Assembly (NCBI GenBank): GCA_964610735.1
Contig: CAZSYH010000005.1
Coordinates: 5,912-69,911 of the forward strand
Source of the DNA: an uncultured Syntrophaceae bacterium
Lineage (GTDB): Bacteria > Desulfobacterota > Syntrophia > Syntrophales > UBA2210
Length of the DNA stretch: 64,000 bases
Direction of reading: 5' to 3'
Both the position numbers and the translations under genes were made by a program. The notes below the pieces were generated by a model. It was not told the origin of the DNA. It made no database searches and saw only the letters and a program-made list of their open reading frames with translations. Positions 21,263 through 48,165 of the stretch are shown in pieces (within the stretch, counting starts at the first letter, position 1; every line of letters begins with the position of its first letter).

Positions 21263-21911
21263 CAGTGGTCAATGTGGAAAAGTAGTTTGTGGACAGGATT
21301 AAAATGTGTGGATAGCGGTTGCCTTGAAGGAGACAAATATGCGGGTTCCTTCCTCGAGTCGGAGGTCAAGCAGAGCGCCCTTTGTAACCAGGGACTTGAA
21401 TGTGATGTTTTCCACCATAATGCCTGCTTCGTAATATAATCCACGATCGGATATTTCGGTTATATTTCCCGCGAAGGAGTTTCTCATGCTTGAAGTTAAT
21501 TCCTCTCGACTGAGGACAATGTCTTCCGGTCTGATCGCTATGTACCCTTTGCCGTTCAAAGGTTTTACGCTCAACTCTATCTCCAGGTTTCCCGTAAACG
21601 CCGTTGTTTCTCGAAACTGCGCGGCGAAGAGATTCTTCATGCCTACAAAGTCTGCAACAAAGGTGGAATCCGGGCGTTTGAATATGTCTTCCATCGTTCC
21701 TGCCTGTATGATTTTTCCATTGTTCATTATCGCCGCCCGGTCCGATAGTGAGAGCGCTTCCGCGAAATCGTGTGTAACCATGAGAAACGTGACATTGGAA
21801 TCCCTGTGCAGTTTCTTGAGCCCCGCCCTGATCTCCTCTCTGAATCCGGGGTCCAGTGCCGAAAGAGGTTCGTCAAGGAGTAGAATTTCCGGGTCCACCA
21901 TCAGTGCCCTT
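21263..21911. repeat. right copy of the 649-bp direct duplication
   Basis: Identical by eye to 16076-16724. Confidence 0.9.
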
Positions 21912-24111: not shown

Positions 24112-24210
24112 AAACTCCTTCTTTTGATTTATTTTTGTTTCTGGCAACGGTAAACGGGCAACCATATCTTACGTGGCACACCTACCATATTTGTTATTCC
24201 ACATCAATAT

Positions 24211-25175: not shown

Positions 25176-25275
25176 TGGTCTTGAACTGAATGGCGAGCGC
25201 ACTTCTGAGTTATTTGTCCAGCCGCATAAAACTTCAGGCTCCTGTCTGGAGATGTAGCGGAAGCCCGGAGGGGGT

Positions 25276-33793: not shown

Positions 33794-33794
33794 A
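33688..33794. repeat. left copy of an approximately 107-bp direct repeat (manC 5' end)
   Basis: Matches 47971-48076 with 3 substitutions in the well-aligned part. Confidence 0.85.
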
Positions 33795-34052: not shown

Positions 34053-34081
34053 TTGACAAAATATTTTTTGATATGTATCGT
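34053..34081 (+). promoter_or_regulatory. candidate sigma70 promoter upstream of the riboswitch-like leader
   Basis: TTGACA at 34053-34058, 17-bp spacer, TATCGT at 34076-34081. Confidence 0.35.
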
Positions 34082-34094
34082 GCTAGTTAAAGCA

Positions 34095-34205
34095 GAGGTA
34101 ACAGGCCTCCGAGTGTAACCGCCTAAAGGTTTTTGCCAATGGCATTACACCGAAGGGTTTTCCCGGAAACGGGGAAGCCTCCCGTGTTTGGAAAGAAGGC
34201 TGAAC
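34095..34205 (+). promoter_or_regulatory. Moco/Tuco (moaA-motif) riboswitch candidate
   Basis: GGCCUCCGAG ... CACCGAAGGG ... GNRA hairpin CCCG-GAAA-CGGG ... GCCUCCCGUGUUUGGAAAGAAGG. The 3' block nearly matches the E. coli moaA leader (GCCUCCCGUAUCUGGAAAGG) as I recall it. Helices GUGUAA/UUACAC and UGCC/GGCA can form. Confidence 0.6.
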
Positions 34206-34715
34206 TTTCCATGACTGTTTGTATAATATCCGCAATAGGGGATAATACGATGGTTAATTCACGGGCGCTTCTAAACAACACCTATTCTCCTTATTTTACC
34301 CCGTATACATTTATATCTCTTATCTTGCCTTGTGGATTACTGTCTTTAAACAATACATTCTCCAAAGAAAGCATAACGGCGGAGTGTTGTCGTAGCAGTA
34401 TGCTGAGCCATTGTAAGATCAAGGTGATCAAGTGTCCATCTGAATCTTTTTGACGTTTTACCGACTTACTGTCCAGAAAGTAAGTGCGGAAAAACAGAAG
34501 GGAGGTGTCAAATTACAATCCGGAGCAGCGAAGCCTCAATCTCAAAGGTAAAAGGCTTCAAGCTCGCATTTTCGAATCAGGTGAATGGCGGGGTTAGGTG
34601 TTAATCTCCTGATATTTACAGCTATTAGCCTTTCACCATAAGCATCAACCTCTTCGTAATAAAACGAAGTTGTTGATAATAAAGACTAACAAACTATCAG
34701 GATGGAGGTTATCCC

Positions 34716-35432
34716 ATGGAAACAGAAGAGAAGAAATATCCTGAGGTTCTTCAGAGAGAGACATCCCGTCGTGGATTTCTCAAGGGAGCTGCTGTAGCGG
34801 CGGGAGGCGCCGTTGCGCTGGCAACAATTGGTGTCATAAAACCCGCTGCTGTCAAGGCCGCTAACCCGGCACCGCCTCCCAAGATGATCAAGCATCTGTT
34901 TGTCGAACGTCAGAACTGTACAGGATGCCGGGGATGTGAATTTGCATGTTCCCTGTTCCACGAAGGAGTTGTCAGGCCTGAAGCTGCGAGAGTACATGTC
35001 AACAAGTATAAAGGTATCATCGATATCCCGGTAATTTGCTGGCATTGCGAAGATGCACCCTGTATTGCAGCGTGTCCCGTTGAGCCTACGGCTATCTACA
35101 AGGATGAAAAAACGAACGGCATCCTCTTGAATAAGGATACGTGTCTCGGTGCCAAGTGCAGTAAATGTGTGGAGGCATGCCCGGCACAGTTCCTGAGGTT
35201 GCATCCCGATACAGGACACCCTCTGACATGTGACCTTTGCGGTGGCGACCCGGAATGCGTGAAAGCATGCCTGGCACAATCGGGAAATCCCCAAGGGCCC
35301 TGTATTATGGGAGACAAACTCGGTTTCGGTGTGAACCTGGCATATCGCGATGTAACACCGGAGGAAGCTGCTAAGGACATGACTGTCAACTTCTTCTATC
35401 CAAATGAAACCGGGGAAAGGAGGGCTATATAA
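34716..35432 (+). CDS. Tat-signal 4x[4Fe-4S] ferredoxin subunit (NrfC/DmsB-like)
   Basis: Twin-arginine motif TSRRGFLKG, an h-region and AVKA-A cleavage site, and four Cys cluster motifs (CTGCRGCEFAC, CWHCEDAPCIAACP, CLGAKCSKCVEACP, CDLCGGDPECVKAC). Confidence 0.85.
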   Translation: METEEKKYPEVLQRETSRRGFLKGAAVAAGGAVALATIGVIKPAAVKAANPAPPPKMIKHLFVERQNCTGCRGCEFACSLFHEGVVRPEAARVHVNKYKGIIDIPVICWHCEDAPCIAACPVEPTAIYKDEKTNGILLNKDTCLGAKCSKCVEACPAQFLRLHPDTGHPLTCDLCGGDPECVKACLAQSGNPQGPCIMGDKLGFGVNLAYRDVTPEEAAKDMTVNFFYPNETGERRAI

Positions 35433-37237
35433 TGGCAGCACCACGAGGAGGAAATTTTGGAAAGGTTCTGGAAATCGATTTATCAAAAAAAACCTTTAAA
35501 ACGCGTACCGTGCCGGAGGAGATATATCAGCAATTTCTTGGTGGGGCGGGCATGGGGGATTACTTTCTTCTGCACGAGTATAAAGCCCATCAGGACCCCC
35601 TTGCTGAAAACAGCTTCCTGTATCTCGGGGCGGGCCCACTGGATGGAACGTATTGTCCGTCCACTCGAATGAGCGTCGTCCACATGAGTCCGTACACAAA
35701 AAGGCTCAGTCATGCCGAAGTGGGGGCTCATATAGGCGCCGAGATTAAGTGGGCCGGCTGGGACGGCATCTATATCCTGGGAAAATCGAAAAAGCCGGTA
35801 TGGCTCTATATCCGGAACGACAAAGTGGAGTTCAGAGATGCCAGTAACTTATGGGGCAAGGATACCGCTACAACGGAAGATATGATTGTAGAGGAATTGA
35901 AGGATCCCCGGGTCAGGGTCGCCTGTATCGGTCCCGCTGGTGAGAATGAAGTCCCGTATTCCTGTCTTATAGTAGAGCGTTTCAGGGCTGCCGCCAGGAC
36001 GAGCACCGGCGCGCTCATGGGAAACAAGAAATTAAAGGCTATTGCTATCAAGGGAAGCGGGTATGTTCCCGCAGTTGACAGCGATAAATTCATCAAAGCG
36101 GCCAAGGCAGCGAAGCAGTATGCCGTTGACAATGAAGGCTGGCAAGGCATCAAACGATGGGGCACTGCCGGTCTGCTTGAGCTGAAGAACTGGGGCACGG
36201 GATCACTCGTTACGAAAAATTATCAGACCACCTGGTTCCCGGACATTGAATACATCGGTGCCGAGGAGGCAAACCGTCGTTTCTGGAAAAGGCATGTGGC
36301 CTGTACGCACTGCCCCGTTCACTGTCAGAAACTTGGTGTTATTCGAGGTGGCAAGTACAGTGGCCTCATAGCTGAGGGGCCCGAATATGAAACCGGCGGC
36401 CTTTTGGGCAGCAATCTCGACATTTCTGAGTTTGATGGCATGATGGCCGCGATTGAACTGTGTGATGCCCTTGGCCTCGATGCCATTTCAACCGGCGGAT
36501 GTATCGGTTTTGCCATGGAATGCGTCCAGAAAGGTGTTCTCTCGAAGGCTGATCTTGACGGCATTGATCTCGAATGGGGCAACGCGGATGGGGTTGTCGA
36601 GATGGTGAAAAAGATCGCTTACAAGAACGGGAAAGCGGGAAAGCTGCTCTCTAAAGGCGTTGTTGCCATGTCACAGGAAATAGGCCACGGTTCCGAGAAA
36701 TGGGCCGTTCATACAAAGGGCAAAGAGATGGCTGCTCATGACCCGCGGGGCGATAAACCGAGGGGTGTCAGTTATGCCATGGGCCAGTGCGGCGGTGACC
36801 ATCATGAATCCAACAGCCCCGCTGGCCAGGCCCAGCGATGTATCCACAATTCGCTTGTCTGCTGTTCATTTGTCGGCGGGTACTGGTCAATGGGTATGTT
36901 CACCGATATGCTGAACCCGCTGTGTGGGTGGAGTATATCGGAAGATGATATGATGAAAACAGGCAAACGAATCCGAACTCTGGAGCGTTGCTTTGATGTC
37001 CGTGAGGGTATCAGCCGGAAGGATGATATCCTGCCGTACCGTATGACAAACGAAGCACTGCCGGAGGGACCGAAGAAAGGAGCGATTTTTACCGAGGCCG
37101 ATACAAAGAAGATGCAGGAAGATTATTATGCGTTCTTCGGATGGGATAGCAACGGTGTCCCGACGGAGAAGGCCTTGAATGATCTTGGACTCGCATTTCT
37201 TATTGACGATATCAAAGCGGCTAAGAAAAATTTGTAA
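35432..37237 (+). CDS. aor: tungsten-type aldehyde:ferredoxin oxidoreductase family protein
   Basis: 601 aa with an AFOR_N-type N-terminus (GKVLEIDLS...FLGGAGMG), CxxCxxxC (CTHCPVHC), GPEYET, and pterin-binding motifs (CDALGLDAIS, SLVCCSF). There is no signal peptide. TAATG coupling links it to the upstream Tat ferredoxin. Confidence 0.92.
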   Translation: MAAPRGGNFGKVLEIDLSKKTFKTRTVPEEIYQQFLGGAGMGDYFLLHEYKAHQDPLAENSFLYLGAGPLDGTYCPSTRMSVVHMSPYTKRLSHAEVGAHIGAEIKWAGWDGIYILGKSKKPVWLYIRNDKVEFRDASNLWGKDTATTEDMIVEELKDPRVRVACIGPAGENEVPYSCLIVERFRAAARTSTGALMGNKKLKAIAIKGSGYVPAVDSDKFIKAAKAAKQYAVDNEGWQGIKRWGTAGLLELKNWGTGSLVTKNYQTTWFPDIEYIGAEEANRRFWKRHVACTHCPVHCQKLGVIRGGKYSGLIAEGPEYETGGLLGSNLDISEFDGMMAAIELCDALGLDAISTGGCIGFAMECVQKGVLSKADLDGIDLEWGNADGVVEMVKKIAYKNGKAGKLLSKGVVAMSQEIGHGSEKWAVHTKGKEMAAHDPRGDKPRGVSYAMGQCGGDHHESNSPAGQAQRCIHNSLVCCSFVGGYWSMGMFTDMLNPLCGWSISEDDMMKTGKRIRTLERCFDVREGISRKDDILPYRMTNEALPEGPKKGAIFTEADTKKMQEDYYAFFGWDSNGVPTEKALNDLGLAFLIDDIKAAKKNL

Positions 37238-37260
37238 GGAAAATTTTTAGGTAAATGATG

Positions 37261-37296
37261 AATAATCGGGGCAGGCATCAGCCTGCCCCGATTATT
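37261..37296 (+). terminator. perfect 16-bp stem hairpin after aor
   Basis: aataatcggggcaggc atca gcctgccccgattatt. No U-tract follows, so its terminator function is uncertain. Confidence 0.45.
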
Positions 37297-37523
37297 GCCT
37301 TGGCAGGAGATTGATAAAGTCACGACAATCTATAACCATGCATCTTGATTTTTTTGCTCTTTGTCGAGACCTCTCTTAATGAGCATGTACATACGTTGTC
37401 TGAATGTCTGTTCATAAAAATACAAAATAGGGAAAAATCCTTTTATTGTGACAACGCAATAATTCATTTAAGACTTATTACATTGCCGTATTTGGAAACT
37501 AAGCAGACAGGAGTATGTAATAC

Positions 37524-38210
37524 ATGAAACTGTCGCGGCGAGATGTACTTCATATAATCATCAGCGGTGCCATATCGGGAATCGTTTTTATCTTCTTCAA
37601 GGTTTCTGGAGCAAAGGCATTGCCCCGTCCGCCGGGGTCACTCATTGAAAACGAATTTCTGAAGTACTGCACCCGATGCTACAGATGCATAGACGTGTGC
37701 CCTGCCGACGCGCTTAAACCTGCCGGCATTCTTGACGGCATAACCAACCTGGGCACACCGGTTCTCGATTGGAAGAAGTGTATCATGTGTATGGAATGTG
37801 TCAGAATATGTCCCACCGAAGCTATTAAGAAAGTCCCCAAAAAAGAGATTGATATCGGAAACGCGGTGATCGAGCCCGACACATGCCTCTCCTGGCAGAA
37901 AACGAGCAGATGCAAAAATTGTTACAAGGCCTGCAAGTATGATGCTATCAAGCTGGAAAAGGGGCGATTTCCCGTTGTCATAGAGGAAAACTGTACGGGT
38001 TGCGGCGCCTGTGAGCAAAGGTGCCCGACCGACCCTAAGTCTATTGTTGTACATTACGACAAGGTTAAAAGATTTGATCCTTCCGGAAATCGATTTGTTT
38101 TACAACTTGAAGATCGAGTAGGGCCTTATGATTTTCCTCAGTCTGATTTCAAAACATGGTTTGCAGGCAGGATGGAGAAGCTGGCCAGACACTATGGGAT
38201 TATAAAATAA
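37524..38210 (+). CDS. NapG/MauM-like ferredoxin with twin-arginine N-terminus
   Basis: SRRDVL plus a hydrophobic segment, then LPRPPGSLIENEFLKYCTRCYRCIDVCP, which parallels E. coli NapG [28 protein letters not shown] as recalled. Four Fe-S motifs are present. Confidence 0.8.
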   Translation: MKLSRRDVLHIIISGAISGIVFIFFKVSGAKALPRPPGSLIENEFLKYCTRCYRCIDVCPADALKPAGILDGITNLGTPVLDWKKCIMCMECVRICPTEAIKKVPKKEIDIGNAVIEPDTCLSWQKTSRCKNCYKACKYDAIKLEKGRFPVVIEENCTGCGACEQRCPTDPKSIVVHYDKVKRFDPSGNRFVLQLEDRVGPYDFPQSDFKTWFAGRMEKLARHYGIIK

Positions 38211-38269
38211 GGGGCAAGGGAAAGAGTGGCCTTCAATTTTGCATTAAAAGAGATAAGGATCAACCTCTA

Positions 38270-39529
38270 ATGACTGGTTTTGAACATATTCAAAATACAG
38301 GAAGAGATGCTGTACTGGTTGTCGGTGGCGGTGTAGCGGGCATTACGGCTTCTCTGGATCTGGCGGATGCGGGTCAGTCCGTTCATCTGGTAGAAAACGA
38401 CAGTCATCTCGGTGGTCAGGTCTCAAAACTGGATAAACTCTATCCGACCGATCACTGTGCCTTCTGTCCCCTCTGGACAGATGTCAAAAAGTGTATGGAC
38501 CATCCTTTAATTACTGTTCATACGCTCTCTCACATAAAGGAATTGACGCAAGAAAACGGTAGCTATTCAGCCCTCATCCTGAAACATCCTCATTACATAG
38601 ATGACAAGAAATGTATTTTCTGCGGACGATGTGTGGATGAGTGTCCGGACAACGCTATACATTCCGGCTGGGAACATTTATATCCACCCACTTTCGTGAT
38701 TGATGAAGCTTTATGTACACAATGTGGCAACTGCACGAAGGTATGCCCTTCGGGTGCTATTAATATGGAGTTGAAAGAAGAAGAAATAAATCTTCTCGTG
38801 AGGGATGTCATATGGGCAACCGGTTTTAAAGAGGCCGATCTCAGTCACCTCAAGGAATATGGAAGCGGCACCCACCCTGATATTATGACGTCCATGGAAT
38901 TTGAAGAGTGGACCGCAGAAGCAGGAACCAACAGGGGAAATATCATCAAAAGATCGGATGGCGCGGTACCGGCAAACATCGCTTTTATACAGTGCGCCGG
39001 AGCGAGGGACCTCAGGATGATTCCATCCTGCTCTGCCGTATGCTGCATGCATGCCTTCAAACAGGCCGAGTGGGTGAAAAGAAGAAATCAAAGGATCGAT
39101 TGTTATATCTTTTATACCGATTTAAGAACGGTGGGGCGCGATTATTACAGATATTCCCTGAAGAATTTTGAAGGTGCTGATGTCAAACTTGTCAGGGGAC
39201 GACCGGGATTGATCCATCCCATGCCCGGCGGTAATGGGATCGCGGTACAATTTGAAAATACGATAACACAAAAAAGAGAGATCAGAAAATTTGACATTGT
39301 GATCCTGAACGGGAACATTCAGCCTTCCCTTATTCAGCTCTGTCCGGCACAATCTGAAAAGAAAGTGGCTCCTCAGATAGACAAAGAAGGGTTCGTTATT
39401 GAAGAGTCAGGCGAAACATCTGCTTTTGCATGCGGCTTCGGTCTTGAACCGGCAGATGTTGCCGAGTCCGTAATCCAGGCGTCCGCTGCCGCAATGAGAG
39501 TTATGAATAAAGAATCTGACCAACGGTAG
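38270..39529 (+). CDS. HdrA/QmoA-like FAD-dependent oxidoreductase with inserted 2x[4Fe-4S] ferredoxin domain
   Basis: VVGGGVAGITASLDLADAG dinucleotide fold, DHCAFCP motif, and CIFCGRCVDECP plus CTQCGNCTKVCP. The start is set at ATG 38270. Confidence 0.8.
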   Translation: MTGFEHIQNTGRDAVLVVGGGVAGITASLDLADAGQSVHLVENDSHLGGQVSKLDKLYPTDHCAFCPLWTDVKKCMDHPLITVHTLSHIKELTQENGSYSALILKHPHYIDDKKCIFCGRCVDECPDNAIHSGWEHLYPPTFVIDEALCTQCGNCTKVCPSGAINMELKEEEINLLVRDVIWATGFKEADLSHLKEYGSGTHPDIMTSMEFEEWTAEAGTNRGNIIKRSDGAVPANIAFIQCAGARDLRMIPSCSAVCCMHAFKQAEWVKRRNQRIDCYIFYTDLRTVGRDYYRYSLKNFEGADVKLVRGRPGLIHPMPGGNGIAVQFENTITQKREIRKFDIVILNGNIQPSLIQLCPAQSEKKVAPQIDKEGFVIEESGETSAFACGFGLEPADVAESVIQASAAAMRVMNKESDQR

Positions 39530-39537
39530 AGTGAAAC

Positions 39538-41232
39538 ATGGCAAACATATCTGTTTTTTTATGCAAATGTTTAGGAGAAATTGATCACATAATCGATTTT
39601 GGTCTTCTCCGTGAGGAATTATCAAAAAATTCTTCTGTTGCCCTCATATCGACCGTTGATTCCCTCTGTCTCGAAACGGATATAGAGAAAACTATTTCTC
39701 TGATAAAGGAAACTGACGCTGATAAGGTATTAATCGCCGCCTGTTCTATTTTGTCGAGAGGCAATCTTGTCGTTGACTGTCTTATCAGAGCGGGGGTCGA
39801 GAGGCATAAGATCGCTCTGGTGGATATCAGGGAAGGATGCGCCTGGATTCATGGCGACAATCCTGAAGACGCCTCAAAAAAAGCAAAAGACCTCATAAAT
39901 ATGGGGATCGCTGCTCTTCAGCATAAAGAAATGTCCGACGACATGTCCGTCACCGTTAATCCGAGTGCCATGATAATAGGTGCAGGCCCCGCAGGCCTTG
40001 CCGCCGCCATATCCGTAGCAAAAATGGGATATGAGGTTAGTATCCTCGAAAGATCAAAGGACCCCGGAGGGATGCTTCGATTCATCTCCCGATGTTATCC
40101 AGGCAACGACGATGCATCGAACAAACTGGAACCATATATTAAAGAGATTGAGAATAATCCCCTCATTACCTTCTATCCGCAATCAAAAATCGCTTCTATT
40201 GAGGGAAACACCGGTAATTTCACCGTTCACTTTTCATCTCAGGAAAAAGATAGTTCCATCCATTCAGGAGTTATCATCATCGCGACAGGCGCAAAGATAT
40301 TTTTCCCGACCGGTCTTTATGGCTATGGAGAAATCAAGAATGTGATCACACAGATGGAGTTTGAGATACAAATCCTGAATGGATCATTAGAAACAAAAAA
40401 AACCGTATTTATACAATGTGTTGGCGCAAGAGATAGAAAAAGACCGTATTGTTCAACTATTTGTTGTCCAATCAGTCTTAAGAATGCATCGAGGATCGCT
40501 GAAGATGTCCCGGGCGGGTCAGTATTTATTCTCCACCGGGGGATCATGACGCCGGGGAGCACCCCGGAGAAATATTACAGGGATACACTCTCAAGTGGTG
40601 TACAGTTTATTCGTTTTGAAGAGGAACAACCACCTCGGATCATAGGCAGTGACCATGTTGAATTCGTTGAGGTGTATGATGCGATAACCGGGATTACAAG
40701 GAAGATTGAGACTGATCTGGTGGTCTTAAGTACTCCCCTTATCCCAAATAATGACAATGCGCGACTGGCTCAGATGCTGGGTATTGAAGTTGACCGTTAT
40801 GGGTTTTTCTCGGAGGTCTATCCGATGCATCCCCTGGAGACAAAAACGGATGGCATCTTCATCTGCGGCTCGGCGAGATGGCCCGTTTCTTCAGATCATT
40901 CGATAATACAGGGGAAAGCGGCAGCCATGAAGGCGGTCTCGTATTTAAAACAGAGTAAAATTGCCGCATCAACACTCAGCCGGGTCCCCGGTCCGAAAGC
41001 AGGTCATGCCTGTGTTAATGTCGATGCATGCACGGGGTGTGGTAACTGTGTTGCTGTCTGTCCCTTCGACGCCTGTCAGCTTGAAAAGCTTGAGGGCAAG
41101 TACGTAAGTACGGTGAACCTCATGAAATGCAAGACCTGTGGTAACTGCGTTCCATTATGCCCCAACGGGAGCATACAGATTCCCGAACATAACTACCGCA
41201 TGGTGGGGGGAATGATACAGAGGGCATTTTAG
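39538..41232 (+). CDS. HdrA/QmoB-like FAD-dependent oxidoreductase with C-terminal 2x[4Fe-4S] domain
   Basis: IIGAGPAGLAAAISVAKMG fold, CVGARD...YCSTICC HdrA-type motif, and C-terminal CTGCGNCVAVCP and CKTCGNCVPLCP. Confidence 0.8.
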   Translation: MANISVFLCKCLGEIDHIIDFGLLREELSKNSSVALISTVDSLCLETDIEKTISLIKETDADKVLIAACSILSRGNLVVDCLIRAGVERHKIALVDIREGCAWIHGDNPEDASKKAKDLINMGIAALQHKEMSDDMSVTVNPSAMIIGAGPAGLAAAISVAKMGYEVSILERSKDPGGMLRFISRCYPGNDDASNKLEPYIKEIENNPLITFYPQSKIASIEGNTGNFTVHFSSQEKDSSIHSGVIIIATGAKIFFPTGLYGYGEIKNVITQMEFEIQILNGSLETKKTVFIQCVGARDRKRPYCSTICCPISLKNASRIAEDVPGGSVFILHRGIMTPGSTPEKYYRDTLSSGVQFIRFEEEQPPRIIGSDHVEFVEVYDAITGITRKIETDLVVLSTPLIPNNDNARLAQMLGIEVDRYGFFSEVYPMHPLETKTDGIFICGSARWPVSSDHSIIQGKAAAMKAVSYLKQSKIAASTLSRVPGPKAGHACVNVDACTGCGNCVAVCPFDACQLEKLEGKYVSTVNLMKCKTCGNCVPLCPNGSIQIPEHNYRMVGGMIQRAF

Positions 41233-41303
41233 AGAAATGCCAAACACTTTTTTGTCATTACTGGTTAGGTGGTTATCAGTACCGAAGCGGAAGGCAGATA
41301 ATC

Positions 41304-41744
41304 ATGCATACGGTTAAAATGAAAAATCCGAAGATCCTGATTTTTGCTTGCAAATGGTGCGGGCTTATCGGAGCGGATGCCGCCGGGAAGAAGAGGATAT
41401 CTCTCCCCTCTCAGTTTCGTGTCATTCCGGTGGAATGCGCATCTCTTGTTGAACCCGATGCCGTCCTGAGAGCGCTGGCCGGGGGGATTGATGGCATAGC
41501 TGTTCTGGGATGTCACATAGGAGGGTGTCGGTATAATAATGCGAATCACACTGCCATCAAGAGAATGGAACTTCTAAAAGATCTGCTGGATACAACCGGC
41601 ATCGGACGCAGCAGGCTTTTGCTCAGTTTTGGGACCGCACATGAAGATTATCAATTTGAAGAGATAATAAAGAGTTTTTTTGACGAGGTATCGTTACTGA
41701 CCCCCCTTGATCCCTGGTTGTCGTCGTTTGGAGTGATAAGCTGA
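41304..41744 (+). CDS. mvhD: MvhD/FlpD-like [2Fe-2S] hydrogenase delta-subunit-family protein
   Basis: ILIFACKWCG...IPVECASLV...GIAVLGCHIGGCRY pattern typical of MvhD. Confidence 0.82.
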   Translation: MHTVKMKNPKILIFACKWCGLIGADAAGKKRISLPSQFRVIPVECASLVEPDAVLRALAGGIDGIAVLGCHIGGCRYNNANHTAIKRMELLKDLLDTTGIGRSRLLLSFGTAHEDYQFEEIIKSFFDEVSLLTPLDPWLSSFGVIS

Positions 41745-41746
41745 TT

Positions 41747-42598
41747 ATGCTCGAGAAAACAAAAAACATAGCAAGACAGATTCTTGAAGAGAAAAAGGCT
41801 GGTGGTATCCTGGGCCTCATGAAAGGGCAATGGAATATCATCCAGCCCCATATTTTTGAAGCACCTGCGGAATTAGACGCCCTTGTTCTTGAACCGAAGT
41901 GGTTGCTGGCAAAGCTCGCTATGGGAATATTACGTTCCTCACCGGAAAATTACAAACTGGCTGTAATCTGCCGTGGATGTGATGAAAGGGCACTGATTGA
42001 ACTGATAAAGAGAAATCAGATAGAGAAGGAAAGCCTCCTTACGATTGGAATTGCCTGCAGTCAGGAACAGGCAGCCCTATGCCTTTGCGACAGGCCGTAC
42101 CCCACGAAACTCGACGCAGGGGAGAAGGTTAAAGGGGTAGATCCTTTCCAGGACGAAAGAGTCCGGGAGTTTTTGATCGGTAATGACAAACAAAGGATGG
42201 AGAGGTGGGCTGATATGCTGAAGAGGTGTATCAAGTGTTACGGCTGCCGCAATTCCTGCCCTATCTGCATCTGTGAACCCTGCAAACTGGAAGACGATGT
42301 CTGGGTGAAAAGGGGTGTTGTGCCGGCGGAAGCAATAACCTTTCATCTTATACGTGCCTTCCACCTGTCGGATACATGTGTGGCCTGTGGGGCCTGTCAG
42401 GAAGCCTGTCCCGTTAATATCCCGCTCCTCTATCTGCAGTTCTCGATGCGCAAAACAATCCAGGAATACTACGGGTACGAGGCGGGACTTGATCTTGAGA
42501 TAAAATCACCAGTTCTTTCCGGTGTTTTCGAAGGACCCGATACGGACAGGGAATATCCTGCATGGGTAAACTCGATGAGGGAACGAGATGGGATCTAA
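41747..42598 (+). CDS. 2x[4Fe-4S] protein (AsrA/HydB/FdhB-like electron-transfer subunit)
   Basis: CIKCYGCRNSCPICIC and CVACGACQEACP motifs. It overlaps the fdhA start by 11 nt. The precise family was not recognised. Confidence 0.6.
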   Translation: MLEKTKNIARQILEEKKAGGILGLMKGQWNIIQPHIFEAPAELDALVLEPKWLLAKLAMGILRSSPENYKLAVICRGCDERALIELIKRNQIEKESLLTIGIACSQEQAALCLCDRPYPTKLDAGEKVKGVDPFQDERVREFLIGNDKQRMERWADMLKRCIKCYGCRNSCPICICEPCKLEDDVWVKRGVVPAEAITFHLIRAFHLSDTCVACGACQEACPVNIPLLYLQFSMRKTIQEYYGYEAGLDLEIKSPVLSGVFEGPDTDREYPAWVNSMRERDGI

Positions 42599-44630
42599 AT
42601 TTGTCAAGACCATTTGTCCTTACTGTGGAACAGGCTGTGGCCTTATAATAAAGATCATAGATGGTGTGGCCGTTGCCACCTATCCCGACAGGGAACACCC
42701 TGTCTCTCGAGGTAGTTTGTGCATAAAGGGATGGTCTGCTCACGAGTTTATCAACCATCCCGACCGCTTGACATCGCCTCTTTTGAGAAAGGGTGACACG
42801 TTTCAGGAAATCCCATGGGATGAAGCCATACCGATGGCGGCCTTGAAATTGCGTGAGACTGCCGCACGATATGGCGGCGATGCCATTGGTGGTCTTTCTT
42901 CCGCCAAGTGTACCAATGAAGAAAATTACCTTTTCCAGAAACTGATACGCATGGCATTTAAAACGAACAACGTGGATCACTGTGCACGTCTGTGCCATGC
43001 CCCGACTACCGTTGCAATGGTACAGGCCCTTGGCAGCGGGGCAATGACGAATTCTATTTCGGATCTGGCCGGAGCTGAGTGTATCATTGCCATCGGTTCC
43101 AACACAGCGGAGAGTCACCCGATCATCATGGGGGGAATTTATAAGGCCACTGACAGGGGTGCGACACTCATCGTTGTCGATCCCCGTGAAACGGCAGTCA
43201 CCCGGAATGCAAAGATTCACCTCCGGATAAATCCGGGAACGGATATACCCCTTTTGTGCGGTATGATGAGACACATTATTGATGAAGGACTGCACAACGA
43301 GGAATTCATCAGGGACCGTATGGAAGGATTTAAAGATCTGAATACATTCCTCCAGTCGTGGCCTGTCAAACGGGCTGCCGACGAATGCGGTATCGATGAA
43401 GAGCTCATCAGAAATGTGGCTACGATTTATGCAAAAGCAAAAGAATCTGCCGTAATCTATTGCATGGGTATCACTCAACATGCCTGTGGAACAGCCAACG
43501 TCCTCGCCATTTGTGACCTTGCCATGTTGTGCGGTCATGTTGGAACAGAACATTCCGGCATATATCCCCTTCGGGGACAGAATAATGTTCAGGGCGCCTG
43601 CGATATGGGTGCCCTGCCCAATGTCTATCCCGGATACCAGAGTGTCAGCGATTCGGCAATTCAGGACAAATTTCAAAAGGCCTGGGGGACTGAACTCTCC
43701 GATAAGCCGGGCCTTACCGTTACGGAAATCATCGGCCTCGCGGGGAAGGATATCCGCGCAGCCTATATCATGGCGGAAAATCCCGCATTGAGTGATCCCG
43801 ATACCAACCATGTTTTGGAGTCACTGAAAGCCTTTGATTTTCTCATCGTTCAGGATATTTTTCTCACCGAGACGGCAAAATTCGCACATCTGATATTTCC
43901 CAGCTCCTGTTTTGCCGAGAAGTCCGGGACGTACACCAATACGGAGAGAAGATTTCAGCTCTTGCGAAAGGCAGTCGATCCGCCGGGAAATGCAAAAGAA
44001 GACTTTGCGATTTTATGCCTTTTGGGAAACGCTTTGGGACTTAATTTTTCTTACATCCATCCTGCAGAAGTAATGGAGGAAATCGCGTCTCTGGCCCCGG
44101 CCTACGGCGGTATCCGCTTTGACAGGTTGGAGCTGGAAGGTCTGCAGTGGCCCTGCCCTGATTCAGAGCATCCAGGCACACGGTATCTTCATAAAGACCG
44201 GTTTACGAGAGGCAAAGGACTTTTCGTCATCCCCGAGTATACTCCACCCAGGGAACTACCCGATGATAAGTATCCTTATTATCTAAGTACGGGAAGAATG
44301 TTTGCTCATTATCATACTGGTACAATGACGCGCCGATCACCCTTTCTCAACAGGGAGGTGGAAAAGGCCTATGCCGAGATCAACCCGGAAAATGCTGCTC
44401 ATCTGAACGTAAAAGACGGGGAGAAAATAAAGCTAACAACCCGCAGGGGGAGTATTATAACAACCGCCCGGATAACGAAACGTGTTGCAAAGGACTGTAT
44501 TTTCGCTCCTTTCCACTTTGCCGAGGCACGGGCCAATATGTTGACCAATCCGGTCCTGGATCCCCATTCCAAGATACCGGAATTCAAGGTATGTGCCGCA
44601 GATGTAAGGAAGGAAACAGAGGATGGCTAA
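42588..44630 (+). CDS. fdhA: formate dehydrogenase catalytic subunit (Mo/W-bisPGD, Cys-type, cytoplasmic)
   Basis: N-terminal [4Fe-4S] CPYCGTGC, active-site HCARLCHAPT (Cys-His at the Sec/Cys position), downstream RGQNNVQGA, and no Tat signal. Confidence 0.88.
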   Translation: MGSKFVKTICPYCGTGCGLIIKIIDGVAVATYPDREHPVSRGSLCIKGWSAHEFINHPDRLTSPLLRKGDTFQEIPWDEAIPMAALKLRETAARYGGDAIGGLSSAKCTNEENYLFQKLIRMAFKTNNVDHCARLCHAPTTVAMVQALGSGAMTNSISDLAGAECIIAIGSNTAESHPIIMGGIYKATDRGATLIVVDPRETAVTRNAKIHLRINPGTDIPLLCGMMRHIIDEGLHNEEFIRDRMEGFKDLNTFLQSWPVKRAADECGIDEELIRNVATIYAKAKESAVIYCMGITQHACGTANVLAICDLAMLCGHVGTEHSGIYPLRGQNNVQGACDMGALPNVYPGYQSVSDSAIQDKFQKAWGTELSDKPGLTVTEIIGLAGKDIRAAYIMAENPALSDPDTNHVLESLKAFDFLIVQDIFLTETAKFAHLIFPSSCFAEKSGTYTNTERRFQLLRKAVDPPGNAKEDFAILCLLGNALGLNFSYIHPAEVMEEIASLAPAYGGIRFDRLELEGLQWPCPDSEHPGTRYLHKDRFTRGKGLFVIPEYTPPRELPDDKYPYYLSTGRMFAHYHTGTMTRRSPFLNREVEKAYAEINPENAAHLNVKDGEKIKLTTRRGSIITTARITKRVAKDCIFAPFHFAEARANMLTNPVLDPHSKIPEFKVCAADVRKETEDG

Positions 44631-45084
44631 CGATAACGACAGGATTGCCGAAGCAAGGAGATTTTCCTGCGCATACAGTTGCGTGGAATGTGGCAGGTGC
44701 GTTGCAGTCTGTCCCATGGCAGAGATGTATACAAATTTTTCTATCGAAATGTCACCACGGGGAGTCATTAAGAAAACTCTGGTCGGGAATGACATCATCA
44801 CGGACGAAAATATATGGTATTGTACCGAATGTAATGCCGGTACCGATATTTGTCCACAGGGGGTTAGCTGTCGCGATCTGATTCGAGGTCTCAGGGAAAT
44901 AGCAATCGAAGAAAACATGGTTGAAAATTTAAAATACTGTACCCGTTGCGGCAAACGGTTTTTATCAATTCCCGCAAAAAACTTTGTTTTTGAAAGGTTG
45001 AGAGAGGAACCTCCTAACGTTTTGAACGTTCTCGAACTTTGCCCCTCATGCAGGAGGGAGATGTACATGTTACGTAACACATAG
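44623..45084 (+). CDS. HdrC-like 2x[4Fe-4S] protein with C-terminal zinc-ribbon-like Cys pairs
   Basis: CVECGRCVAVCP and CTECNAGTDICP, then CTRC...CPSC. It overlaps the fdhA stop. Confidence 0.7.
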   Translation: MANDNDRIAEARRFSCAYSCVECGRCVAVCPMAEMYTNFSIEMSPRGVIKKTLVGNDIITDENIWYCTECNAGTDICPQGVSCRDLIRGLREIAIEENMVENLKYCTRCGKRFLSIPAKNFVFERLREEPPNVLNVLELCPSCRREMYMLRNT

Positions 45085-45092
45085 GCAATGTG

Positions 45093-46400
45093 ATGCAGGA
45101 ACAAACAAACGAACAAAATAACATTATCACCCTTGAGGAACTCAGGCCACGCCCGGAAGAGAAGAAAACCTTCTCCGACCACTTTATGCCGCGACTTCAT
45201 CCCGGCATCCTCTTTGATCCTAAAAAATGTACCGGGTGCGGCACCTGCGAGATGGTTTGTTCCTTAAGAAATGTTTCTAAAATAGCCCCCACTTCTGCAA
45301 GCATAAAAGTGCTCAGAGATGAGAACAGTGTCAAGAATTTTGCGATCTTCTGCCAGCATTGCCGCAAGCCTCTGTGCATAGAAGCCTGCCCCACCAGGGC
45401 GATTGAAAAGGGGGAAGACGGGATTGTCCGTATCGACAAACTGTTCTGTGTAGCATGCGGTCTTTGTACGATGGCCTGCCCGGAAGCCGCACCGCTTCAA
45501 GATCCAATAACGGGAGAGATCAATAAATGCGATCTGTGTGAGGGAGATCCACAGTGTGTCAAATATTGCCCGTCAGGAGCCCTTACTTTTACAAAGGGGA
45601 AAAGGATTCGATGGATAAAAGCCTTGCGATGGTCCGTTCAGACTATTTCATTTCTCCTTCTGGTCGTTGCCCTGATTGGAACATTCTGTTCTCTAAAGGC
45701 GGGCGCGCTTAGTTTATCCTGTCCCGCGGGAGTCCTGCAGAATATTGCGTCATCAGGTACCGTCGTGCTCGTCTGGATTCTGTCGGCTTCCCTGATCCTC
45801 GGGTTGACCATACTTGCGGGAAGATTTTTCTGTGGGTGGATCTGCCCCTTCGGCTTTTTTCTCGATCTTGTCGATAAAATTACGCCAAAGAAGATCGGAT
45901 GGCCGTCATTTCTCAAAAGCAGGATGGCAAAGTACGGAATCCTTGCCGGAGCTGTGGGAGGAAGTTGTGCCCTCGGTTTCCAGGCCTTTTGTCCTGTATG
46001 TCCCATAGGTTCAATTTGCCGTTCCTATGGAGCGGCCGGGACCCTTAATGGTGCGAATATGGGAATAGTGGCTGTACTGGGAGGCCTCGAAGTAACAGAA
46101 CGGCGGGTCTGGTGCCGATACTTCTGCCCGGTAGGGGCACTGCTGGCGCTCTTTGCAAAGATCGGTCTGATAAAAATTGTCATCGGCGCAAATCAGTGCA
46201 AGAAGTTTTCCTGTGTTCAATGTGCGGAAGTATGTCCCATGGGAATTATTGACGCGGATAAGTTGCGAGAAGGCATATCACCGGAGATACCGATGACCGA
46301 ATGTATTACATGTATGAGATGCATTGACCGATGCCCTTACGGCGCGGCAAAGATACGGTTCAGGTGGCAAAAGGCGGTGCCGGAGAATGTTGAATTATGA
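45093..46400 (+). CDS. fusion of a DmsB-type poly-[4Fe-4S] ferredoxin domain to a NapH-like integral-membrane Fe-S protein
   Basis: N-terminus carries CTGCGTCEMVC, CQHCRKPLCIEACP, CVACGLCTMACP and CDLCEGDPQCVKYCP. The membrane part carries GRFFCGWICPFG and WCRYFCPVGAL (NapH hallmarks) plus two C-terminal Fe-S motifs. Confidence 0.8.
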   Translation: MQEQTNEQNNIITLEELRPRPEEKKTFSDHFMPRLHPGILFDPKKCTGCGTCEMVCSLRNVSKIAPTSASIKVLRDENSVKNFAIFCQHCRKPLCIEACPTRAIEKGEDGIVRIDKLFCVACGLCTMACPEAAPLQDPITGEINKCDLCEGDPQCVKYCPSGALTFTKGKRIRWIKALRWSVQTISFLLLVVALIGTFCSLKAGALSLSCPAGVLQNIASSGTVVLVWILSASLILGLTILAGRFFCGWICPFGFFLDLVDKITPKKIGWPSFLKSRMAKYGILAGAVGGSCALGFQAFCPVCPIGSICRSYGAAGTLNGANMGIVAVLGGLEVTERRVWCRYFCPVGALLALFAKIGLIKIVIGANQCKKFSCVQCAEVCPMGIIDADKLREGISPEIPMTECITCMRCIDRCPYGAAKIRFRWQKAVPENVEL

Positions 46401-47707
46401 AGCTATTCGATAATTTCTACAACATGAAGGTTGGGATAGTCGACCTCACTCAATTATCCTCAGAGGTAATTCCTCTGGACGAGCAGATTGTCGCGGAAAA
46501 GATCGGCGGAGCAGCAGTAAATGAAGATCTTTTCAGGCAATATAAAGATGATGCTCCTCTGCTCATTGGTGTTGGTCCACTGACGGGCAGCTTTGCCCCC
46601 GCTTCATGCCTTTCGGTTGCAACCTTTTTATCGCCACGATTCGGAAATCTCTGCCACGTTCCTCTTATGATGCGTACCGGCCCCGAGATGAAGTTCTCGG
46701 GCATTGATTTCCTGGTGATCAAGGGAACTGCTTCCTCACCCAAGATATTGCATATAGATAAGGGAGCCATACAGATCTTATCTGCGGAACAGTTCATTGG
46801 CGTTGATATCCCTGAGGGTTTACAGACACTGAAAAAGGAAAGGATTCATTCCCGGTCAATCCTCCTGACAGGCACCGCCGCTGACCACGGGGTCCCGAGT
46901 GCTTCTGTTTCAACAGGCTTTAACGGCAGTTTGGATAAAGCGGGTCTGGCCTTTCTGATGGCCTCAAAAAATCTCAAAGGGGTCATCTTCAATGGAACTG
47001 GTGGCCTTCCCTTCGCCGAAGATAACCTTGAGGATAATGAAACAATTGAAAGAAAGCTTTTCGCGGATGAAGGACATGAGAATAAAGGCTTTCTTTCTAT
47101 GTTGGATAAGATCGGAATCGAAGAGAATCTGAAGGGGGTCATAAAAAAAGCAAAATGGCGGGACATGGCATGCTATCACTGTCCTTCTCCATGTATGAAT
47201 TCTGTCCAGTTTACATGGCACGATCCCCGGAAGAATTCCAGAGTCGAAGATAATATATTACTTTCAGATCATCTGGGATTTCTCGCGCTGGCAAAGAAAG
47301 GGGGGAAAGATGTGTTTCCACTTTCAGAAAGTTGCCTCCGTTTTGGTCTTGACCCAGTTGCCGTTGCGGAGAAATTGCCGGAGAACGGATCATTACTTGA
47401 ATCTCTGAACGCTATAGAAGAGATCTCCGTTACACCGGAAGAACCGAAGATCAAAAGGGAACACCACCAGATCGGAGAGGTTTCAGCTGAAATGCATAAC
47501 CTTTACGGCGGCGGGTTACCACCAATTTTAGCTGAAGAATTGTGGAAGAAACGGGTCCGGCTTTCTATGATTCTGGGTGTATGCCCAATATTTTTACTTC
47601 GTTTCACACAGATTTCGGAACTTGATCTTCTAAAGTTCCTCACAAGCAATGAACATGATCTGAAGTTTTTAGAAAAAAAAGAAATCCAATCTCTCATTAA
47701 AAAATAA
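46397..47707 (+). CDS. shortened AOR-family paralog (436 aa)
   Basis: AFOR_N-like N-domain (IGGAAVN..., VGPLTG). It retains CxxCxxxC (CYHCPSPC) and both pterin-type motifs (CLRFGLDPVAV, ILGVCPIF) in a compressed C-terminal region. An ATGA overlap links it to the preceding gene. Confidence 0.72.
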   Translation: MKLFDNFYNMKVGIVDLTQLSSEVIPLDEQIVAEKIGGAAVNEDLFRQYKDDAPLLIGVGPLTGSFAPASCLSVATFLSPRFGNLCHVPLMMRTGPEMKFSGIDFLVIKGTASSPKILHIDKGAIQILSAEQFIGVDIPEGLQTLKKERIHSRSILLTGTAADHGVPSASVSTGFNGSLDKAGLAFLMASKNLKGVIFNGTGGLPFAEDNLEDNETIERKLFADEGHENKGFLSMLDKIGIEENLKGVIKKAKWRDMACYHCPSPCMNSVQFTWHDPRKNSRVEDNILLSDHLGFLALAKKGGKDVFPLSESCLRFGLDPVAVAEKLPENGSLLESLNAIEEISVTPEEPKIKREHHQIGEVSAEMHNLYGGGLPPILAEELWKKRVRLSMILGVCPIFLLRFTQISELDLLKFLTSNEHDLKFLEKKEIQSLIKK

Positions 47708-47854
47708 CGAATAAAGGTGAAAAGCTAGGCCACGGGGCTTATCAAGCTTGCACCCAAATTGAAAAAGGTGGCCGAAGTGTATGTTGGTGTCCTGAAGGAG
47801 ATGGGTAGAGAGGATATAATTTTGTAAAACAGATATCCGCAGGAGGTACGTTAC

Positions 47855-47970
47855 ATGAAAGGAAATACGGGAAAGATTATTAATGTCGATCTTACCGTCG
47901 GCACGGTTAAGGTAGAGGAGCTTCCGGAGGAGCATTACCGGAAGTATATCGGCGGGAGCGGTCTGGCTAC
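47855..47970 (+). pseudogene. 5' stub (about 39 codons) of a further AOR-family gene
   Basis: [38 protein letters not shown] is a typical AOR N-terminus with an AGGAGG RBS. The reading frame then runs into antisense manC-derived sequence. Confidence 0.7.
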
Positions 47971-48076
47971 GATGATCCTCTCACCTGTAATGTTCAGCAG
48001 GTGCTTCGGTCTCTTTTCTCTGCTCAGGGGCCAGAACCTGGTACCCTTTCCTCCCGCCATGATTACCGCATACATA
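47971..48076 (-). pseudogene. stub of a manC homologue (first 33 codons or so), right copy of the 107-bp direct repeat
   Basis: Encodes [32 protein letters not shown] and then diverges. It differs from 33688-33794 only by synonymous substitutions in the aligned codons. Confidence 0.8.
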
Positions 48077-48165
48077 TTAATACCCTTCCTAACTTGATAT
48101 TGCCTTCCCCTTTCTTTCAATCGACAAAAATGTTTATAAGCCTTTCGTTATATTAATAGGGGCTC

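Follow-up and report, generated by a model that had tools for sequence, protein, structure and literature searches.

Eleven consecutive genes in a 64,000-nucleotide (nt) stretch of DNA from an uncultured Syntrophaceae bacterium (GenBank contig CAZSYH010000005.1; the whole stretch is called the window) may form one tungsten-cofactor-regulated operon encoding a single membrane-bound Fe-S/flavin/pterin redox complex of three modules. Judged from the sequences, we regard this reading as about evenly poised between right and wrong. The genes were numbered g1 to g11 along the + strand, and all coordinates are positions of the window. The list of open reading frames (ORFs) contained eleven intact ORFs, all on the + strand and spanning 34716-47707. 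Domain assignment of their products with Pfam and NCBIfam models gave the order ferredoxin bearing a signal for twin-arginine translocation (Tat), AOR, NapG-like protein, two HdrA-like flavoproteins, MvhD, FdhB-like protein, FdhA, HdrC-like protein, NapH-like protein, and mini-AOR. Four junctions overlapped (g1/g2, 1 nt; g7/g8, 11 nt; g8/g9, 8 nt; g10/g11, 4 nt), the gaps were 2 nt at g6/g7, 5-8 nt at g4/g5 and g9/g10, and 71 nt at g5/g6, and the largest was 286 nt at g2/g3. A first-pass annotation of this DNA was therefore correct in describing eleven intact same-strand genes with overlaps, whereas its side-by-side placing of the NapG-like and NapH-like proteins was in error, as the NapH-like gene is the tenth and six genes lie between the two. 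Only FdhA attained the NCBIfam equivalog cut-off among the eleven products, and the same scan detected neither a CCG (HdrB) domain nor a NuoEFG-type domain in any of them.

The gene string was then sought in contigs representing one genome per species. A search with the g7 alignment as the query yielded 58 loci, which were compared with all eleven proteins using tblastn. In 28 non-redundant loci, g1 to g11 followed one another without interruption and in the order of the window, and all eleven ORFs were intact in each complete locus; about 24 further loci were pieces truncated by contig ends, with the order unchanged. The 28 full-string genomes, from anaerobic deltaproteobacteria, differed at the species level, were mostly metagenome-assembled genomes (MAGs) of Syntrophales, covered several orders, and included complete MAG chromosomes. 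One of the 28 is that of the cultured Desulforapulum (Desulfobacterium) autotrophicum HRM2 (CP001087.1, approximately 1.636-1.649 Mb). Median identity to the window ranged from 43% (g11) to 73% (g8), with minima of 34-62% depending on the gene. The overlaps at g7/g8, g8/g9, and g10/g11 were conserved (medians of -11, -11, and -4 nt, respectively), suggesting translational coupling. In every full-length locus g3 and g10 were six genes apart, and g9 always stood directly before g10. The flanking genes were not conserved as a set and were unrelated between species. Three mini-AOR homologs (78%, 47%, and 41% identity) ended the same gene string amid otherwise unrelated surroundings, and the exact g7 protein, with identical neighbors, was encoded on several same-species contigs from metagenomes. 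The survey of genomes and MAGs that the first-pass annotation had proposed thus bears out its view of the genes as one functional unit: the order persists in 28 genomes at such low identities, between differing flanks, and with three overlaps retained.

These data effectively refute the idea that unrelated redox genes, some of them perhaps decaying, came together by chance or recently and share no function, and we give it next to no credence. It could be argued from the 109-nt repeat that brackets the block and the truncated AOR remnant at its end, both described below, which indicate recent rearrangement, and from the high divergence of the mini-AOR, whose identity to the window copy across loci was 34-83%. 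However, 28 species-level genomes from several orders show one and the same gene order, none of the eleven ORFs is disrupted in any complete locus, and the mini-AOR family has a confident fold and 36 invariant columns in 41 aligned members of 302 hits.

The first module is predicted to be exported. The product of g1 (34716-35432, +) is a WorS/DmsB-like polyferredoxin with TAT_signal and Fer4_11 matches. Its N-terminus carries a twin-arginine motif, SRRGFLKG in the window and T/SRRxF[LI][KR][GS] in all full-length ortholog N-termini, followed by a hydrophobic stretch and an AxA-type site, and its 16 invariant Cys residues are sufficient for four [4Fe-4S] clusters. It was 31% identical to E. coli YdhX. 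The gene g2 (35432-37237, +) encodes a full-length tungsten-type AOR (WorL) of 601 residues with both AFOR domains (AFOR_N 220 bits, AFOR_C 348 bits). When aligned to 1aor, it retained the CxxCxxxC...C cluster ligands, PEYE (E313), CDxxGLD (D338), and a His matching H448, as expected of the AOR/WOR family. It has no signal peptide of its own and is predicted to be a Tat hitch-hiker, with g1 as its export partner. Orthology of g2 with E. coli YdhV was considered and rejected, as the identity was 24% and the YdhV model, with its cut-off of 868 bits, matched no more than the N-terminal domain (207 bits). The product of g3 (37524-38210, +) is a four-cluster polyferredoxin of the NapG family, matching the NapG model at 90 bits, below the cut-off of 269. 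Every g3 had 16 invariant Cys residues, enough for four clusters, and began with an RR motif and a hydrophobic segment, together with the conserved sequence [KRTQ][AEV][LIV]PRPP (AKALPRPP in the window); this N-terminus is predicted to be a Tat signal or an anchor.

The substrate of g2 would be an aldehyde or its acid in the arrangement proposed below, and another periplasmic low-potential substrate seems improbable to us. In that alternative, g2 would be a tungsten-pterin enzyme comparable to BamB, which reduces an aromatic ring, and the complex a reductase that is driven by, or feeds, bifurcation. Class II benzoyl-CoA reductase is a precedent for an AOR-family protein combined with Hdr-like modules without aldehyde chemistry, and a P460-family periplasmic protein encoded approximately 100 nt upstream of g1 in 18 loci hints at other chemistry. 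[quoted passage not shown] On the other hand, the scores of g2 were 347-351 bits with genuine aldehyde-oxidizing AORs (that of P. furiosus and 9mqx, a bifurcating WOR), compared with 194 bits for BamB. In addition, g2 retains residues equivalent to the catalytic E313 and H448, and a CoA thioester cannot serve as a substrate in the periplasm.

The second module, encoded by g4 to g9, resembles the cytoplasmic Hdr and formate dehydrogenase (FDH) complexes. The product of g4 (38270-39529, +) is a short HdrA-like flavoprotein, which matched the HdrA2 model at 285 bits over model positions 140-558; it consists of an FAD domain with an inserted 2x[4Fe-4S] ferredoxin domain and is QmoA-like in architecture. 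The mechanically derived ORF of g4 starts at 38156, and gene callers choose 38270 in most copies. The second HdrA-like flavoprotein, g5 (39538-41232, +), matched the HdrA structures 9sfi and 5odc (E values of 1e-71 to 1e-74) and has an N-terminal domain and, at its C-terminus, a 2x[4Fe-4S] domain, whereas the inserted ferredoxin domain is missing. The HdrA models gave 285-357 bits on the two proteins against an archaeal HdrA equivalog cut-off of 1100, which places both at the family level only. The gene g6 (41304-41744, +) encodes MvhD, the [2Fe-2S] electron-entry subunit of Hdr complexes (FlpD, 120.8 bits).

The product of g7 (41747-42598, +), an Fe-S protein of 283 residues, gave no informative Pfam match and had remained anonymous in the first-pass annotation. 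When a four-sequence profile of g7 was searched against the PDB, it matched the FdhB subunits of methanogen Fdh-Hdr(-Fmd) complexes, namely 7bkb_E (E value of 6e-37), 9t1s_M, and 8rvu_E. The profile covered FdhB residues 28-132 and 264-382 only, and the central stretch of about 130 residues, which we take to be the flavin/F420-binding domain of FdhB, was absent. Since only the two end regions of FdhB are matched, g7 is an FdhB without its central domain and, its middle region missing, not a full F420-type beta subunit. This assignment strengthens the Hdr-like logic that had been proposed for the cluster, as it is FdhB that connects FdhA with MvhD-HdrA in the methanogen Fdh-Hdr-Fmd supercomplex (7bkb).

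The following gene, g8 (42588-44630, +), encodes a cytoplasmic FdhA of the Cys type, for which TIGR01591 gave 821.5 bits against a cut-off of 666. Its catalytic motif is HCARLCHAPT (CARL[C/U]H across the family), and in six relatives (L009, L032, L046, L059, L061, and L071, in our numbering of the loci) the codon of the catalytic Cys is an in-frame TGA for selenocysteine (Sec). This exchange of Cys and Sec points to a working FDH active site, and together with the model score it confirms that the FDH first annotated here is real. The last protein of this module, g9 (44623-45084, +), is an HdrC-like 2x[4Fe-4S] protein that matched HdrC models at 44-55 bits and qmoC at 34 bits, all below the cut-offs; it has an extra C-terminal four-Cys motif and 12 conserved Cys residues in total.

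The only membrane protein of the eleven is g10 (45093-46400, +), a fusion of a polyferredoxin and a NapH-like protein with Fer4_11, Fer4_5, and Fer4_7 matches; its NapH model score of 105 bits was below the cut-off of 234. An N-terminal WorS/DmsB-like 4x[4Fe-4S] domain is followed by a NapH-like membrane domain of four segments and a C-terminal 2x[4Fe-4S] domain. The 33 invariant Cys residues are distributed as 16 in the N-terminal, nine in the membrane, and eight in the C-terminal domain; those of the membrane domain comprise two CX3CP motifs (C248/C252 and C342/C346), and invariant Cys residues at the predicted outer face are C200, C211, C301, C304, and C310. Four hydrophobic segments were recognized, the third of which was weak by hydropathy. 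The loops beside the N- and C-terminal domains are rich in Lys and Arg and the 201-224 loop is not, a distribution that fits a NapH-like topology with both Fe-S domains predicted in the cytoplasm. Together with the Tat motif of g1 and the RR motif of g3, these features are in line with the topology of the first-pass annotation. A total of 453 homologs of g10 were found, and through them hosts in culture were reached.

The product of g11 (46397-47707, +) is a mini-AOR of 436 residues in which only AFOR_N was detected. An AlphaFold2 (AF2) model built on a 41-sequence alignment (pLDDT 85.9, pTM 0.89) significantly matched only AOR-family structures in Foldseek, with TM-scores of 0.61-0.66 normalized to the query length. 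C259, C262, C266, and C396 are invariant in the alignment and appear to be the counterparts of the four [4Fe-4S] ligands of AOR. However, the counterparts of D338 and D489, both in DxxGL(C/D) motifs, are L and M by motif reading without a computed alignment, the R76 position is non-basic, and domains 2 and 3 are shorter by about 170 residues. The profile-profile alignment with the g2 family extended over the first 274 residues only, and the C-terminal residues were mapped by motif inspection and the Foldseek match. Thus, g11 keeps the fold and the four cluster Cys residues and lacks those pterin-binding residues of the AOR/WOR family that were examined. The two catalytic AORs postulated at first are accordingly reduced to one: with these residues replaced and domains shortened, a second catalytic role is unlikely, and g11 is probably a pterin-less Fe-S subunit, as far as sequence and model can tell. 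Homologs numbered 302, and the best 120 of these, all of about 290-465 residues (nearly all 400-465) and with AFOR_N only, came mostly from Deltaproteobacteria or Syntrophales MAGs.

Based on these assignments, we infer the following arrangement. In the cytoplasmic core, electrons from formate would pass from FdhA (g8) through the truncated FdhB (g7) and MvhD (g6) to the FAD of a heterodimer of the HdrA-like proteins g5 and g4. This core is where flavin-based bifurcation or confurcation of electrons is likely to take place. The two flavoproteins may divide the role of HdrA in a QmoB/QmoA-like arrangement, with g5 facing MvhD and g4 carrying the inserted ferredoxin domain. A high-potential outlet in place of HdrB would lead from g9 through the cytoplasmic polyferredoxin domain of g10 and its NapH-like membrane domain to menaquinone; such a quinone-linked outlet is the simplest reading because HdrB is absent, g9 always precedes g10, and g10 is the only membrane protein. 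In the periplasmic module, the Tat-exported tungsten AOR g2, the polyferredoxin g1, and the NapG-like g3 would be docked on the outer face of the NapH-like protein. Finally, g11 would be translationally coupled to g10 and most likely serve as a pterin-less [4Fe-4S] scaffold or electron-transfer subunit, the N-terminal WorS-like domain of g10 and the mini-AOR perhaps forming a cytoplasmic mirror image of g1-g2. Because the Hdr/Fdh genes lie between g3 and g10, the two modules, periplasmic and cytoplasmic, are interleaved in the gene order rather than juxtaposed.

The net reaction of such a complex would be a reversible coupling of formate/CO2 to quinone and a low-potential partner, either the acid/aldehyde couple of the AOR or ferredoxin. 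The standard potentials are approximately -420 mV for formate, -74 mV for menaquinone, and -580 mV for acid/aldehyde. In the forward direction, two formate would reduce one quinone and one acid. The reverse, in which aldehyde and quinol reduce CO2, would become feasible at micromolar formate and would suit syntrophs that need to reoxidize menaquinol; in syntrophs at low formate, the favored direction would be the transfer of quinol and low-potential electrons to CO2 to give formate. Formate-driven, quinone-coupled acid reduction or its reverse is suggested here on thermodynamic grounds only.

A more specific proposal, which we consider rather unlikely, is that the NapG-like and NapH-like pair acts as a haem-free transmembrane Fe-S wire. 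Low-potential electrons from HdrA-type bifurcation, with formate as the donor and quinone as the high-potential sink, would then reach the periplasmic tungsten AOR. In reverse, low-potential electrons from an aldehyde would enter and be confurcated with quinol to reduce CO2 to formate, and the pterin-less mini-AOR would be a cytoplasmic docking mirror of the outer AOR.

Several observations weigh against a single complex of this kind. The NapG, NapH, HdrC, and QmoC models all scored under their curated cut-offs, and quinone reactivity is consequently assumed from family resemblance only. Proteins of the NapH family are haem-free and offer no obvious route across the membrane for electrons, those of low potential in particular. 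The AF2 model of g10 was poor (pLDDT 58.8) and unfit for a fold search or for topology. A source of periplasmic aldehyde in the host organisms is not evident. The gap between g2 and g3, 286 nt in the window with a median of 154 nt in relatives, would allow g1-g2 to be transcribed separately. Furthermore, the gene set varies. In the cultured Desulfosarcina alkanivorans PL12, g1-g7, g9, and g10 are followed by MoaA, with neither FdhA nor a mini-AOR at that place, suggesting that these two are accessory. A Sec-containing FdhA has moved behind g10 in a Syntrophobacter MAG and in L061, and the three loci L065-L067 have only the g4-g7 core without an AOR, to which two of them add further MvhD and FdhA genes. 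A Desulfovibrio MAG contains an MvhD-g7 fusion, an HdrC-like protein, g10, a weaker mini-AOR, ThiF, and three MoeA genes. Taken together, the eleven-gene unit is strongly co-conserved, and the members it can more easily do without are FdhA and the mini-AOR.

The gap and the variants also bear on the possibility that the cluster encodes two separate, co-regulated enzymes, which we think unlikely but worth serious consideration. One would be an aldehyde:quinone oxidoreductase formed by g1, g2, g3, and g10 (with or without g11), that is, a respiratory, periplasm-facing "Class V WOR" with the NapGH-like proteins as its quinone-reducing anchor. The other would be a soluble, cytoplasmic FdhA-FdhB'-MvhD-HdrA/HdrA'-HdrC' complex that bifurcates formate electrons to ferredoxin and another acceptor, and the operon would be shared only for the need of W/Mo-pterin. 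Tat-associated, membrane-linked WORs are a recognized class with very variable partner subunits, according to the part of PMC13328260 devoted to them. The larger gap after g2, the g4-g7 core without an AOR in L065-L067, and an AOR-bearing cluster without FdhA in L058 are consistent with two enzymes, and the riboswitch and molybdenum cofactor (Moco) genes described below point to a co-regulation based on the cofactor. However, the genes of the first enzyme would be split by those of the second in every full-length locus, given the constant separation of g3 and g10. The second would have no high-potential acceptor site, lacking HdrB and any CCG domain, and HdrC-like g9 is invariably found directly before g10, a gene of the first. 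In addition, the extra cytoplasmic four-cluster domain of g10 would have no role in a simple path from the periplasm to quinone, and wherever a variant has retained both g9 and g10 (L061, L070, and L071), they accompany the Hdr genes.

The proposed single complex was compared with known systems. It is similar to the methanogen FdhAB-MvhD-HdrABC(-Fmd/Fwd) complexes (7bkb, 8rvu, and 9t1s) in that FdhA, an FdhB-type protein, MvhD, and HdrA-type proteins are present and adjacent. In the 7bkb supercomplex, low-potential electrons pass via a polyferredoxin to a W/Mo-pterin enzyme, a logic that the AOR branch may parallel. The cluster differs in having no HdrB, an only distantly related HdrC, an HdrA split into two flavoproteins, an FdhB without the flavin/F420 part, and additional membrane and exported subunits, and its pterin enzyme is an AOR rather than a formylmethanofuran dehydrogenase. 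Of the HdrABC components, an HdrA flavoprotein and MvhD are thus present at the family level, whereas HdrB with CCG domains is absent. QmoABC likewise comprises a pair of HdrA-like flavoproteins, MvhD and HdrC-like Fe-S modules, and a membrane subunit that faces the quinone, and is reportedly a candidate for the confurcation of electrons from quinol and a low-potential donor. Its QmoC joins an HdrC-like domain to a membrane domain of the di-haem cytochrome b type, and its genes are linked to aprBA. In contrast to Qmo, the membrane subunit encoded here is NapH-like (Fer4_5, CX3CP, and no match to a haem-b family) and not HdrE/NarI-like, the qmoC model, whose cut-off is 300, gave 34 bits on g9, MvhD stands alone as a protein, and the partner is FdhA/AOR instead of AprAB; no apr genes were found within the window, and the cluster is not a QmoABC.

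The exported module resembles that of Class V WOR, represented by E. coli YdhYVWXUT, which likewise has an AOR large subunit, a polyferredoxin with a Tat signal, and membrane-linked subunits, is predicted to be periplasmic, and has a tungstate transporter nearby (PMC13328260). The sections of that paper on Class V describe the class as a WorS that has a Tat signal, a transmembrane domain, or both, plus at least one further subunit, which is what we found, and place the Class V WorL in phylogenetic clade 41 (the YdhV clade). However, the partners in the window are NapGH-like, Hdr-like, and FDH proteins and not the cytochrome b YdhU, YdhW, and YdhT, and the discussion of Class V WORs in PMC13328260 does not mention Hdr, FDH, or NapH partners. 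As in NapGH, there is a Tat-exported four-cluster ferredoxin, and the membrane protein has four segments, two CX3CP motifs, and a 2x[4Fe-4S] domain at its cytoplasmic C-terminus; in contrast to NapGH, g3 and g10 are below the equivalog cut-offs, their genes are non-adjacent, and g10 has an extra N-terminal 4x[4Fe-4S] domain. No nap genes were found, and the equivalog matches and the napA linkage that define NapGH are both missing.

Class II benzoyl-CoA reductase (BamBCDEFGHI) and class IV WorLSABC (9mqx) also combine a tungsten enzyme of the AOR family with a polyferredoxin small subunit and a bifurcating module, with HdrA- and MvhD-like parts in the case of Bam. Both differ from the cluster in being cytoplasmic, in using NuoEFG/Bfu-type modules, and in having no FDH, NapGH-like, or exported subunits, and Bam contains an HdrB/D-like subunit, BamD, that is absent here, its NuoEFG-like subunits being BamGHI. 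Consistently, BamB matched g2 more weakly than AORs did (194 against approximately 350 bits), CCG and NuoEFG domains were lacking, and g1 bears a Tat signal, so that the cluster is not a class II benzoyl-CoA reductase. Each of the closest known systems thus shares modules with the cluster, which departs from each in at least one defining feature. The cluster is built from known module types and is not a categorically new kind of system.

The first-pass annotation had described the component set as unlike any known complex. The absence of HdrB/CCG and of NuoEFG holds; however, the set itself was probably drawn in 2009 as an hdr locus with "Aor5". The genome paper on D. autotrophicum HRM2 (Strittmatter et al. 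2009, PMC2702500) reported nine hdr loci, and the legend of its Fig. 4 lists a ferredoxin, an Fe/S protein, an "Aor5 tungsten-containing aldehyde reductase", a split hdrA3/A3', mvhD, fdhB, and fdhA, from which we conclude that this is probably the same cluster. That legend and the accompanying account are silent on export signals, on the NapGH-like pair, and on the mini-AOR, and propose no joint function. An identity of the cluster with a known annotated complex, which had been named as a possible outcome of a database search, was rejected: its members bear generic database names ("hypothetical protein", "4Fe-4S binding protein", "AOR N-terminal domain-containing protein"), FdhA is the single equivalog match, and our literature search found no description of the cluster as one system.

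A single complex of all eleven proteins would represent a new architecture for flavin-based bifurcation, namely an HdrB-less Hdr/Qmo-type core with a NapH-like link to the membrane and quinone. It would also be a candidate for electron transfer between menaquinone and formate in Syntrophales and some sulfate reducers, which is central to syntrophic energetics, and would offer a natural system in which to study the cytoplasmic Fe-S clusters of NapH/NosR-family proteins, for which an explanation is wanting. Should the NapG-like and NapH-like pair indeed be a transmembrane wire, the complex would be the first bifurcating complex with its low-potential branch across the membrane, and those cytoplasmic clusters would gain a defined role. 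The full cluster in the cultured D. autotrophicum HRM2 and the reduced version in the cultured D. alkanivorans PL12 make these proposals testable beyond MAGs, and the wide occurrence in Syntrophales together with the availability in cultured strains makes the cluster relevant to anaerobic bioenergetics.

Regarding regulation, the leader supposed at first to bind Moco or the tungsten cofactor (Tuco) was confirmed. A riboswitch aptamer at 34095-34214 (+) matched Rfam RF01055 over its full length (70.7 bits against a gathering score of 36, E value of 4.9e-15). It lies approximately 500 nt upstream of g1, and its P3 stem is deleted, which corresponds to the "Tuco-type" variant; in the original description of the Moco motif, the P3-less variant was reportedly associated with tungsten-cofactor genes. 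The interval of about 500 nt from the aptamer to the start codon of g1 (34215-34715) is unusually long for an expression platform and holds only a terminator-like hairpin (34652-34669) and no convincing ORF. Directly upstream of the riboswitch is a sigma-70-like promoter candidate, TTGACA-17-TATCGT (34053-34081, +; best site, 10 of 12 positions). In the scan of this region, promoter and terminator counts were not above the shuffled expectation; thus, the promoter assignment is weak and the scan gives no evidence of operon boundaries. The riboswitch was found upstream of g1 in two of seven related loci tested (L015 and L017) and not in the five more distant ones, and we therefore discarded it as a universal feature of the cluster.

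A regulator resembling the N-terminal part of ModE recurs beside the cluster in at least ten other loci that have no Moco riboswitch. This HTH_1 protein of 109 residues is encoded upstream on the opposite strand in L019-L021, L025-L027, L038, L056, L062, and L063, and downstream of the cluster in L009/L010 and L061. With the riboswitch here and the ModE-N-like regulator elsewhere, control by the cofactor or oxyanion seems to be achieved in two ways. Genes of Moco biosynthesis (MoaA, MoeA, and ThiF) adjoin the variant clusters.

The tungstate uptake genes are less close than had been stated: the WtpABC ABC transporter lies at 21299-24165 on the - strand, approximately 10 kb upstream of the cluster and opposite to it. 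WtpA scored 452 bits against a cut-off of 355, and WtpB (307 bits) and WtpC (386 bits) were just below their cut-offs; the transporter probably supplies the cofactor metal. Divergent from wtpA, a gene at 24297-25175 (+) encodes a putative oxyanion-responsive regulator with HTH_17 and PBP_like (MoeA-C-terminal type) domains. Its C-terminal part resembles the oxyanion-binding domain fused to some MoeA proteins, and it may be a tungstate-responsive regulator. Encoded next, within 24297-26115, is a membrane protein that has DUF4405 and an IF2_N-like segment.

The window is chromosomal, with a dcw cell-division cluster at 669-11070, and in base composition the block of eleven genes is no clear island. 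The block is bracketed by a 109-nt direct repeat, the sole long repeat within 31-50 kb. Copy 1 (33686-33794) is the first 109 nt of an intact manC-like gene on the - strand, whereas copy 2 (47968-48076) is an orphan 5' fragment of manC with six mismatches that adjoins a metallo-beta-lactamase-fold gene (48166-48966); the spacing is 14,282 nt. The manC and metallo-beta-lactamase-fold genes border the cluster in this species only. The arrangement suggests an insertion or rearrangement, confined to this species, of the 14,282-nt block as a whole. Between g11 and copy 2, approximately 40 codons of an AOR 5' end remain (47855-47967, +; AFOR_N 32.7 bits, residues 6-43). The ORF of 80 residues at 47855-48097, in which the first-pass annotation saw a trailing AOR gene fragment, was rejected as a twelfth gene because it is a chimera of this 5' end read into the antisense of manC repeat copy 2. 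The stretch 47855-47967 is a non-functional truncated remnant of a further AOR gene.

Several other genes were observed near the cluster in related loci. The cytochrome P460-family ORF mentioned above lies on the same strand as g1 and is absent from the window; its 18 loci are L019-L022, L025-L027, L029, L031, L034, L038, L039, L041, L043, L045, L056, L062, and L063. Its product is a secreted protein of about 166 residues with CxxCH near the C-terminus (Pfam PF16694, 55 bits) and may be an additional periplasmic redox partner. An HbpS-like/GlcG gene (PF03928) is present upstream in seven MAG loci (L019, L025-L027, L056, L062, and L063) and downstream in D. autotrophicum HRM2 (L069, 12626-13123). 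A second full-length AOR, 55-57% identical to g2, is encoded about 1.2 kb upstream of g1 in L031, L034, L039, and L045 (positions 1 to approximately 1830).

Directly downstream of the mini-AOR in L009 (14157-19862), a Sec-split FdnG-like gene, an FdnH-like gene, cytochrome b, and FdhE constitute a periplasmic-type FDH. The downstream region of L016 (16737-20800) gave only weak g8-like (30%) and g10-like (27%) matches and is probably a periplasmic-type FDH cluster. Together with the cytoplasmic FdhA, these genes hint at formate handling on both sides of the membrane in L009 and L016. Two other riboswitches lie downstream of the cluster and are unrelated to it, namely a c-di-GMP-I-GGC riboswitch in L017 (19398-19482) and a fluoride riboswitch in L047 (18537-18597).

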